From: Escherichia phage SH2026Stx1
Reading direction: 5' to 3' (one strand)
Sequence record: NC_049919.1
Length of the DNA: 61,564 bases
In this document: positions 15,001-18,000 of the stretch, one piece after another
Position numbering within the stretch: the stretch's first letter is position 1
Layout of the letters: each line of letters opens with the position of its first letter
Position numbers: made by a program

Positions 15001-18000
15001 AGCGAAGCATTGCCAACGCCGGGAGGATGTCGGTTAGCGTACTGCGAAATCCTGCATCGATGGATGACGAGGGCTGGGCACGTGTTGCTAACGGCATGAG
15101 TCAGCTTGCAGATTTGGATGTATGGGTAGTCGATGCTTCGCGGTTATCGGTCGAAGAAATACGCTCAATCGCAGAACGGCATAAGCAGGAAAATCCAAAC
15201 CTGTCACTCATCATGGCGGATTATCTTGGCCTGATTGAGAAGCCGAAAGCAGACCGCAACGACCTCGCAATTGCTCACATCTCCGGAAGCCTGAAGGCGA
15301 TGGCGAAAGACCTGAAAACACCGGTTATCTCCCTGAGTCAGCTTTCGCGCGATGTTGAGAAGCGACCAAACAAACGCCCGACAAACGCAGATTTGCGTGA
15401 TTCAGGAAGCATTGAACAGGACGCAGACTCAATCATCATGCTCTATCGGGAAGCGGTATATGATGAGAACAGTAGCGCCGCGCCATTTGCTGAAATCATC
15501 GTGACGAAAAACCGTTTTGGCTCGCTTGGTACAGTTTACCAGCGGTTCTGTAACGGACACTTTGTTGCATGTGACCAGGATGAAGCCAGACAGATTTGCA
15601 CAGCATCAAATGCACCTGCTGCGCGTGGCAGACGATATGCACAAGGGGCTGACGTATGACCATCTACATCACTGAGCTAATAGCAGGGTTATCGTTACTA
15701 ATGGTTCTTACTGTATATATTATTAAGTATATTCTTTATGCGAATAAAAAAACTAATTGATCACGATGAGCTTCTGTCAACATTATCATATGACTCAGAA
15801 ACAGGAATATTTAAATGGCTAAAAACAAATTCAGTAGTAAGAGTAAAAGGTAGTATTGCTGGAGGTGTTAGTGGTGGTTATATATGCATTAGTATAAATA
15901 ATGTTTTGTATAAGGCGCATAGACTTGCTTGGTTCTATGTATACAAAAAATGGCCTCCTAAGTTTATTGATCATGTAAATGGGAACAGACTTGATAATAG
16001 GATTTCAAACCTAAGACTGGCAACAGAAGAGCAGAATGCAAGAAACATTGTAGGGAATAGATTAAACACATCCGGTGCAATTGGAGTGTCTTGGTATAAG
16101 CCAACTGGCAGGTGGAAGTCTTATGTTGGTTATAAAAATAAGACAATATCGTTAGGGTATTTCGATAGCAAAGAAGATGCAGCATTCATAGCAGCACTAG
16201 CAAGAAAGAAACTATATGGAACTTATGCGAGTAAAGCACTTAATTGCGAGCATGAGCTTTTATCTCAATTTAATAATGATGAGGATAAACTTGCGGAATA
16301 TCTTAAGGAAAAATATAAAAGGACTCGAAAGCGTGTTAAAAAAAGATAAAGGCCTGCTGGTAATCGCAGGCCTTTTTATTTGGGGGAGAGGGAAGTCATG
16401 AATCTGGACAAGCAAGATGCACAAACTATTAGCTCATACATAAGGGCATCAAGACCAGATTACAAAGGTCCGGTATTCGTAGATTTATCTCGCCTTGAAT
16501 AGATTTACATGTGGAAAGCAAGGTTACTTACGCATTTTGTTATTCGAACGATGACTAGCAACATTACAAAACCAATGTAACTGGAAGAGGTGAATATGAG
16601 CACACTCGCAGACCTTATTCATGCCGATATGGCTGAAGATGGAGCAAGGCGTAATAGGTACTGGAAATCATCGAGCCTTCCAGTTTGTGAAAGATTCAAT
16701 CACAGGCCAAAACCAAAACGTAGCCGACGAGACAAAGTGTTGAAAAAACTCATGCAAATTAACATGGCTGGTTTTGTCAGATTCGTGAGTGAAACGACTA
16801 ACGGTGATTGATATGGACGAATCAAGAAAGCAGTTTGAGGAATACGTTGCCAAAAAATTGAGATTACCATTCGAGATGATAACCGAGGCAAGAAATGGTG
16901 ATAGGTACTTCGCATTTTCAAGCATGGATATTCGTCACTCCTTAAATGATTGGTGGGCTTTATGGCAGGCATCGCGAGCAGCTATTGAACTGGATATCGA
17001 CTGGCCCGAATCGAATGACGACCTTTGGAAAGATGGTGAAGAAGGTGCTTATGCGATGGGTTATGAGGATGGGCGTGACAAAACGGTAATTGCAGTAATG
17101 AAAGCCATCAGGGCCGCAGGAATCAAAGAAAAGAATTTCGATTAAGCAAATATCACTTCAATAAATCGCTTTTAAGGCATCACAATCGCTCTGTGGTGAG
17201 GTAAGCACGTGCAAGGTATACCGATAAGCAGCGAGAATGAAAAATGCGTCAGAATGCGTTTGAGGAGGTTTTAAGAAATGAGTACGATAGCTGAGCTTGT
17301 CAGGGCTAATTTTCGTGAAGAGTTGGTGCGTTGGTATCGGTATCGTTCATCGTCCAGTTTGCCGCTTGATGAGTTGTATGAGCATTCACCTGCCGCACGA
17401 CGCTATCCGCGTGACCGTGTTCTTCGACGGTTGTTCAAACTCAACAATGAGTTTCAGCGCAACAGAATTATCCGGAGTCTGGATTTTAAGTGAAGGAGTG
17501 AGCATGAGCGACCTATCATTAACCCAGCCAAAGCTAAAAGAATGTCCGTTTTGCGGCGGTAATGCTCGTCTGTGGGTTGAGGCCGGAATAAATATTGATG
17601 TGTGGGGCTATGCAGAATGTGACCTCTGTGAAGCCAGGGTGGCATGGGCACCATCAGTTGCTGCGGCTACTGAAAAATGGAACCGGAGAGCAGGAGATGA
17701 AGCAAACCTTTCTGCTTCGCAACGAAGCAATCAGAAATAACGCCATAGACGCCATTCTCTCACTACCCATCGACGACAAGTCACCCCACGAAGTCCACGT
17801 TAAAGAACCCAAGCGCAGCAAAGCGCAGAATGACCGCATGTGGCCGATGCTGAACGATGTTTCGCGTCAGGTGCTATGGCATGGTCAACGGCTGGCGCCG
17901 GAAGACTGGAAAGACCTGTTCACTGCCCTGTGGCTTAAGACCAAAAAACTGGAGCAAAGAAGTGCGCCTGGTATCGACGGTGGCGTTGTCATGCTTGGCG

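Follow-up and report, generated by a model that had tools for sequence, protein, structure and literature searches.

We analyzed a 61,564-nucleotide stretch of Escherichia phage SH2026Stx1 (NC_049919.1), referred to here at its full length as the window, in which a small HNH-AP2 endonuclease gene (HNH1) lies between the replication module and the nin genes of a lambdoid prophage. HNH1 is probably a homing endonuclease gene of the HNH-AP2 class, carried as the payload of a free-standing cassette. We base this reading on a fixed insertion site, occupation of many phage backbones, sporadic presence, a conserved cassette, the HNH-AP2 protein itself and a linked guanine at flanking position −5. Foreign GC content, the lack of terminal inverted repeats and of a promoter of its own, and the preservation of the resident terminator tR2 point in the same direction. 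Feature coordinates are collected in Table 1.

Insertion site and distribution of the cassette

The ends of the cassette were defined by aligning the window with two phages that lack the HNH gene, Nil2 and 2851, and with two carriers, PA28 and the W224N prophage. The insertion measures 665 bp; the triplet AGG is common to both junctions, which leaves a 3-bp ambiguity and makes 15685..16349 an equally valid placement. The empty site reads ATGACCATCTACATCACTGAG(T/C)TAATAACAGG|CCTGCTGGTAATCGCAGGCCTTTTTATTTGGGGG, with the bar marking the insertion point, and the uninterrupted ninA/tR2 joint around that point reads ...TAATAACAGG|CCTGCTGG... The insertion point falls inside codon 11 of the 25-codon ninA open reading frame (ORF), which is annotated at the empty site of Nil2, and lies at the 5' foot of the tR2 stem. 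The cassette site is a non-coding regulatory joint at which the replication module of lambdoid phages meets the nin module. This agrees with the position given in the original prediction, with a DnaB-like helicase on the left and NinB, Dam and NinG on the right. The predicted AT-richness was likewise borne out: GC content is 33.4% in the cassette, compared with 52.3% in the helicase gene and 52.7% in ninB-dam, and runs at 33-37% across the gene versus 50-55% on either side. The HNH-AP2 protein is the sole ORF of the cassette, no transposase is present, and a search of the cassette ends for terminal inverted repeats found none. An internal 40-nt repeat (15736-15778 versus 16223-16264) was considered as the remnant of a second copy and dismissed as chance, since 16 of 500 shuffles scored equally.

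We then examined how widely the cassette occurs. It was present in 126 of 5426 complete Escherichia coli (E. coli) genomes, at 138 places that were all at least 95% identical; about 2000 of the 5426 genomes match the region holding the tR2 site. Eighteen phage records also carry it, among them HK022, the Stx2 phage 1717, PA28 and several Stx2a phages. An exact-pattern scan of IMG/VR returned 20 filled junctions versus at least 120 empty ones. Comparison with HNH-free relatives thus defined the insertion site and showed that the gene is far from universal at this position, which upholds the original prediction. The search pattern for filled sites spanned the left junction, and 18 of the 20 sites could be followed to the right end; the left junction was the same in all 20, and the right junction in all 18 that were traceable. 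A close relative of the encoded protein was found solely in E. coli in a scan of GTDB with one genome per species, which relied on exact peptide words and is not exhaustive.

The filled sites lie in diverse backgrounds. Six different genes precede the cassette, encoding the DnaB-like helicase, an unrelated helicase of the HK022/P22 type, a toprim primase, a lambda-type Ren, a divergent Ren-like protein and an 89-amino-acid (aa) protein, and at least six different contexts follow it. Each of these upstream and downstream contexts also occurs with an empty site. Conserved across backbones are flanks of 32 bp on the left and about 38-44 bp on the right, and these flanks mark a general mosaic joint in HNH-free phages too. 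The cassette itself varies little: 17 of the 18 measurable IMG/VR copies are 665 bp long with at most 14 mismatches (at least 97.9% identity) and an intact HNH ORF, and the eighteenth is 666 bp long and frameshifted. The variable sites of the ORF, 9 synonymous and 8 non-synonymous, give a ratio of non-synonymous to synonymous polymorphism (pN/pS) of about 0.24, a pattern that shows the mark expected of purifying selection.

One flanking base travels with the cassette. Position −5 was G in 20 of 20 filled sites versus 3 of the 120 empty sites listed, the other 117 carrying A (Fisher p 2e-21). In each of four separate left contexts, no other flank difference went consistently with the cassette; in the one testable right-hand context, no cassette-linked difference was seen on the right flank. 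The −5 G could possibly be a very short co-conversion tract, a substitution at the true edge of the element or a cleavage-resistant allele, and the three empty G alleles would fit a resistant or ancestral allele.

The gene had also been credited with its own terminator, and this claim did not survive comparison: the hairpin is the resident tR2, unchanged in HNH-free relatives. It aligns base for base with the annotated tR2 of phage Nil2, which lacks the HNH gene, and the identical sequence occurs at 120 or more HNH-free sites in IMG/VR. Both the hairpin and its T-run are intact after insertion. The final bases of the cassette extend the stem from 8 pairs to 10, and RNA folds gave energies of −18.0 kcal/mol for the filled site versus −17.6 kcal/mol for the empty one. 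The displaced original sequence, AATAACAGG, resembles the cassette end, AAAGATAAAGG, and the latter appears to imitate the sequence that the cassette replaced. Within window 16342-16381, the end of the HNH ORF (AAAGATAAAGG) is also complementary to the tR2 T-run, which is why the tR2 hairpin was additionally scored as a minus-strand terminator.

A promoter scan found no sigma-70-like promoter on the plus strand of the cassette, and no Shine-Dalgarno sequence was recognized by eye before the HNH ATG. The insertion leaves a rebuilt ORF, ninA', whose codons 1-10 are resident and which is cassette-supplied from the junction-spanning codon 11 onward. It closes 20 nt downstream of the HNH start codon, in a different frame, an arrangement suggesting that the HNH gene may be translated by coupling to ninA'. 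We also considered ninA' as a sign that the cassette "repairs" ninA, and rejected this, as an open stretch of 23 codons would arise by chance with a probability of roughly 0.2 in AT-rich DNA (rough estimate). The insertion is tolerated: tR2 is kept, ninA is re-closed, and the carriers HK022, 1717 and PA28 are viable.

The HNH-AP2 protein and its relative in ninG

The prediction of a gene combining HNH and AP2 domains was confirmed. The 203-aa protein matched Pfam HNH_3 (PF13392) with 56.1 bits against a cutoff of 24.8 (E 2.9e-15), and PHROG 99, "HNH endonuclease", with E 9e-72. Its match to Pfam AP2 (PF00847) reached 28.7 bits, under the 33.3 cutoff (E 1.6e-6); PF00847 is among the precomputed Pfam matches of a 97%-identical protein cluster (P0001). 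We utilized AlphaFold to model the protein from 68 homologues, which yielded a mean predicted local distance difference test (pLDDT) score of 88.5. The AP2 part of the model comprises three strands (residues 117-120, 125-132 and 135-142) followed by a helix (145-163). In Foldseek, this part superposed on the AP2 domain of TEM1 with a root-mean-square deviation (rmsd) of 1.1-1.3 Å over 48 columns, and on that of AtERF1 with 1.3 Å over 51 columns (probability 1.00), which confirms the AP2 fold by structure.

The nuclease part was compared with I-HmuI. A phmmer alignment to 1u3e, at a weak similarity of E 0.23, paired D78/H79/N91/N100 with D74/H75/N87/N96; the Asp-His pair, the structural Asn and the metal-binding Asn of the beta-beta-alpha-metal motif are all present in the 203-aa protein. 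Shen et al. 2004 reportedly assigned these I-HmuI residues their roles in catalysis. Foldseek aligned the model with 1u3e_M over 106 columns (probability 1.00, rmsd 3.8 Å, E 1.6e-2). All 68 homologues share H61, D78, H79, N87, N91, R93 and N103, and at least 90% of them keep N100. Given the model, the residue matches to I-HmuI and the invariant residues, the nuclease core looks functional, as a prediction.

A second HNH-AP2 gene (HNH2), encoding 188 aa, lies further downstream. The original prediction described it as inserted in ninG and paralogous to HNH1, and both descriptions proved correct. Alignments of DNA and protein place it inside ninG, where the second cassette follows the first 29 nt of the gene. 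The HNH2 ORF borrows the start codon and the first 9-10 codons (MAKPARRRC) of ninG itself. At its 3' end, the second cassette carries an AT-rich, diverged replacement for about 30 N-terminal ninG codons, roughly 60% identical as judged by eye, and the usual ninG sequence is back from about 22375. GC content is 38% in the second cassette versus 50% in the remaining ninG. Since the second cassette supplies a new ATG and a substitute 5' end, ninG is rebuilt, not destroyed. NinG itself belongs to a His-Me finger nuclease family (PMC5714182).

Pairwise alignment of the two HNH proteins gave 39% identity over 155 aa (E 3e-34), and tblastn found no third HNH copy or fragment in the window. A recent duplication was ruled out by this level of identity and by the different sites. 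On the same grounds, with one element at ninA/tR2 and the other at ninG codon 10, the two genes appear to be independent invasions by two lineages of one family, which fits the earlier suggestion of repeated invasion by selfish elements. The two elements differ both in site and in the way they spare the host gene. The second cassette was found in 538 of 5426 complete E. coli genomes, all copies at least 99% identical, and among phage records only in the Stx1 phage AU6Stx1.

Proposed homing and alternative explanations

As a homing element, the cassette would be transcribed from pR together with the replication genes, upstream of tR2. By established lambda biology, it would be silent in the lysogen and expressed with replication, and translation would probably be weak, through coupling to ninA'. 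During lytic growth or induction, with an HNH-free lambdoid genome present, the AP2 domain would bind the uninterrupted target (about ...CTGAGCTAATAACAGG|CCTGCTGGTAATCGCAGGCC...) in the HNH-free genome sharing the cell. The HNH domain would then nick or cut near this target, by analogy with characterized HNH homing enzymes; I-HmuI nicks one strand. Recombinational repair from the HNH-bearing genome, through the short conserved flanks, would copy the cassette and the −5 G into the empty site. The filled allele would be immune, because the cassette splits the target.

Several observations weigh against this homing scheme. Strain 180-PT54 (O157) carries the cassette at 2.10 Mb and a canonical empty A-allele site at 1.57 Mb; the empty site sits in a Stx1a prophage (L154 1178-1255) and the filled site in another prophage on the same chromosome. 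Because filled and empty sites coexist there, conversion appears to be absent in the lysogenic state. Such coexistence would fit silence in the lysogen and, equally, an inactive enzyme. The AP2 score of the 203-aa protein misses the curated Pfam cutoff, and some copies are decayed, with one frameshifted in IMG/VR and a few split or truncated in genomes. The pN/pS value draws on 17 variable sites only, and we found no cleavage or gene-conversion experiment on this protein in the searchable literature. Finally, ordinary recombination through the conserved flanks could transfer the cassette with no nuclease involved.

This last point leads to the main alternative to homing, namely passive shuffling, in which the nuclease is a relic and the cassette moves by ordinary homologous or Red-type recombination in the ninA/tR2 linker. 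The conserved flanks in all backbones, the mosaic joint that exists even in HNH-free phages, the presence of filled and empty sites in one genome and the decayed copies are all consistent with it. We nevertheless consider it unlikely, since the ORF is intact in nearly all measurable copies with a low pN/pS, and since D78, H79 and N91 are invariant, and N100 nearly so, in the 68 homologues. Furthermore, the −5 G is carried in every backbone, which would confine left crossovers to a 27-nt window, and break-stimulated repair is the easier explanation. The gene could instead have been domesticated, as an exclusion nuclease or as a tR2 regulator altering read-through into nin-Q-stx, and be kept by phage-level selection. 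Purifying selection, the position directly at tR2 with its lengthened stem, the nature of AP2 domains as DNA-binding modules and a weak PADLOC match to a "homing endonuclease" model (E 4e-4) would suit such a function. It is rendered improbable, more so than passive movement, by the fact that only about 2% of complete genomes carry the cassette and close relatives manage without it, by the lack of a recognizable multi-gene defense system around the gene, and by the nearly equal tR2 energies of filled and empty sites. Membership in a defense system was rejected as well, as PADLOC gave weak matches to generic nuclease models only.

The HNH motif and the AGG triplet at both junctions might also recall a packaging-associated HNH protein of the HK97 gp74 type, or cargo of a transposon or insertion sequence. 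This explanation is effectively refuted and has very little probability left. The gene sits in the early-right operon, about 16-18 kb from the portal gene and a presumed terminase gene, and its HNH_3 plus AP2 architecture is not that of the packaging-linked HNH family. A transposon or insertion sequence is contradicted by the missing transposase and terminal inverted repeats and by junctions that are the same in all filled sites examined (left 20/20, right 18/18). A moron was rejected too: the cassette has no plus-strand promoter match, and the terminator is the resident tR2.

The homing endonuclease reading places the cassette in a known class. HNH-AP2 proteins are recognized as homing endonucleases of phages, cyanobacteria and protists in PMC10448857 and PMC1524935, which cite Magnani et al. 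2004; PMC5714182, citing the same work, also includes the class. HNH_3 domains with AP2 or NUMOD modules form His-Me finger group 2, alongside I-HmuI (PMC5714182). Like RB49 ORF040c of a T4-like phage and IPA-HNH of ICP1, the protein has an N-terminal HNH domain followed by one AP2 domain, and it is likewise encoded by a small free-standing phage gene that is sporadic and unlike its host in composition. It matches the canonical HNH_3 profile, for which the domains of IPA-HNH are too divergent. In contrast to the known HNH-AP2 enzymes, its hosts are temperate lambdoid and Stx phages, and its predicted target is the ninA/tR2 regulatory joint, not an essential gene. With I-HmuI of the Bacillus phage SPO1, the 203-aa protein shares the His-Me finger core and group 2 HNH_3 domain; I-HmuI is intron-encoded with DNA-binding modules of the NUMOD/helix-turn-helix type, whereas the lambdoid protein is free-standing with AP2.

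The seg and mob genes of T4 are likewise intergenic cassettes on mosaic boundaries, and flanking markers are co-inherited with them, as the −5 G may be here (PMC10448857). Seg proteins are GIY-YIG enzymes, Mob proteins combine HNH with a zinc finger, and T4 is virulent; here, an HNH-AP2 protein resides in temperate hosts, in which filled and empty prophages can share a cell for long. Lambdoid morons, as described in PMC1524935 after Juhala et al. 2000, are similarly short insertions of foreign GC content between conserved genes. Morons have a promoter and a terminator of their own and usually are expressed from the prophage, whereas the cassette has neither and encodes a selfish-type nuclease. 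General mention has been made of HNH genes that occur sporadically in lambdoid phages and are apparently mobile (PMC12315714), and nuclease genes at recombination boundaries are known in other phages (Barth et al. 2023, PMC10448857). The depositors of PA28 annotate the gene as "homing endonuclease", and GenBank records call it an HNH or homing endonuclease. In the searchable literature, whose coverage is incomplete, we found no description of the tR2/ninA target or of the HNH site of HK022.

Prophage context and significance

Table 1 Features of the window (basis as determined in this analysis)
Feature	Position	Strand	Basis or remark
DnaB-like replicative helicase, left neighbor	14283..15659	+	Pfam DnaB_C 9.5e-78 and DnaB N-terminal domain
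ninA', rebuilt ORF, 34 codons	15656..15760	+	Translation; same ORF annotated as HK022_56
Flanking base −5	15683..15683	.	G here, A in empty sites; travels with cassette
Inserted cassette, 665 bp	15688..16352	+	Alignment with HNH-free and HNH-bearing relatives
HNH-AP2 endonuclease ORF (HNH1)	15738..16349	+	203 aa; first and only long ORF of the interval
HNH_3 (His-Me finger) domain, residues 58-102	15909..16043	+	Pfam, phmmer, conservation, Foldseek
AP2 DNA-binding domain, residues 114-161	16077..16220	+	Sub-cutoff Pfam match and model superposition
Resident lambdoid terminator tR2	16348..16383	+	Hairpin 16348..16375 and T-run; scan, Nil2 annotation, alignment
Second HNH-AP2 gene (HNH2), 188 aa	21740..22306	+	Same two domains, same PHROG; RefSeq annotates same gene
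Second cassette, after ninG codon 10	21769..22374	+	DNA alignment with ninG of HK630 and 933W
ninG restarted from new ATG inside second cassette	22281..22892	+	Pfam NinG 4.6e-83; protein alignment
Stx1a subunit A	24008..24964		
Portal gene, P22-type	33851..35995		

The surrounding genes are those of a lambdoid prophage: integrase, a cI-like repressor, Cro, O, the helicase, Lar, NinB, Dam, NinG, NinH, Q and a P22-type portal. The stop codon of the helicase gene overlaps the start of ninA (ATGA). The stretch that begins with the helicase gene and runs past HNH1 to about 17200 is 100% identical to the Stx2a phage WGPS4 (Stx2a_WGPS4), which lacks the second cassette. The part spanning nin, HNH2, Q and stx1A matches AU6Stx1 as well as Stx1a prophages with an unoccupied tR2 site. 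In none of the 30 complete E. coli genomes listed as best matches, among which are all 25 places with at least 80% query coverage, were both HNH genes contiguous as in the window. By these matches, the region 15000-24964 is a mosaic.

Further variation was seen near the two cassettes. About 600 bp 3' of tR2 (16380-17145) are variable and hold small ORFs at 16380..16502, 16590..16811 and 16789..17145; Nil2, 2851, PA28 and Stx1a prophages have a different 279-nt ORF at this position. Between ninE and the second HNH gene lies a 590-aa ORF on the minus strand (19350-21122; about 30-39% GC), which had no match in Pfam, NCBIfam or PADLOC and is kept as a "hypothetical protein" in Stx1a prophages and AU6Stx1. 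This ORF looks like a moron. A (TATTTC) microsatellite of 17.8 copies, 99% perfect, occupies 21439-21545, in the gap that separates the beginning of the 590-aa ORF from the second HNH gene. In AU6Stx1, the corresponding region is 60 bp shorter in total, and the copy number may vary between strains.

We also encountered a chimeric HNH gene (P0004; L153 3919-4520) on a Logan contig, SRR10380363_203. Its codons 1-66 and upstream ninA junction are identical to those of HNH1 in the window, and the remainder represents a third member of the family with a higher GC content. Immediately downstream come rusA, ninH and Q, without tR2 or nin genes. The 3' part had no megablast match in complete E. coli genomes. 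As the nearest non-identical relative (62% identity), P0004 was considered as an intermediate lineage and rejected, being a chimera. Its locus would reflect either deletion of the nin region by recombination between HNH paralogues or an assembly chimera.

Overall, the cassette is a real, well-delimited but ordinary element, a member of a known homing endonuclease class. Added here are the exact target at the 5' foot of tR2 inside ninA, the 665-bp cassette, the linked −5 base and the occupation of at least six backbones. In genome annotation, tR2 is the proper label for the terminator, and treating the gene as a moron should be avoided. A defined target makes a clean homing experiment easy to design, with empty-site lambda-like phages being standard laboratory material.

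By analogy with the homing endonuclease genes of T4 and ICP1 (PMC10448857), and solely by that analogy, a role in phage-phage competition is plausible. The ninA/tR2 joint appears to be among the most widely shared short lambdoid sequences. It is a tentative idea, and one we would not presume, that an active enzyme targets this joint and breaks HNH-free prophage genomes in induced enterohaemorrhagic E. coli (EHEC) carrying multiple prophages. If so, breakage at the boundary between replication and nin modules would bias which Stx phage emerges and would drive module exchange at the joint. HNH1 and its ninG-inserted relative would, moreover, provide dispersed homology able to delete the whole nin/terminator region. 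The P0004 contig, in which HNH1 codons 1-66 are joined to the third family member and then rusA with no nin genes, hints at such a deletion. Should the enzyme be active, the cassette would offer a concrete driver of mosaicism, and of competition between the Stx and non-Stx prophages that reside together in EHEC.

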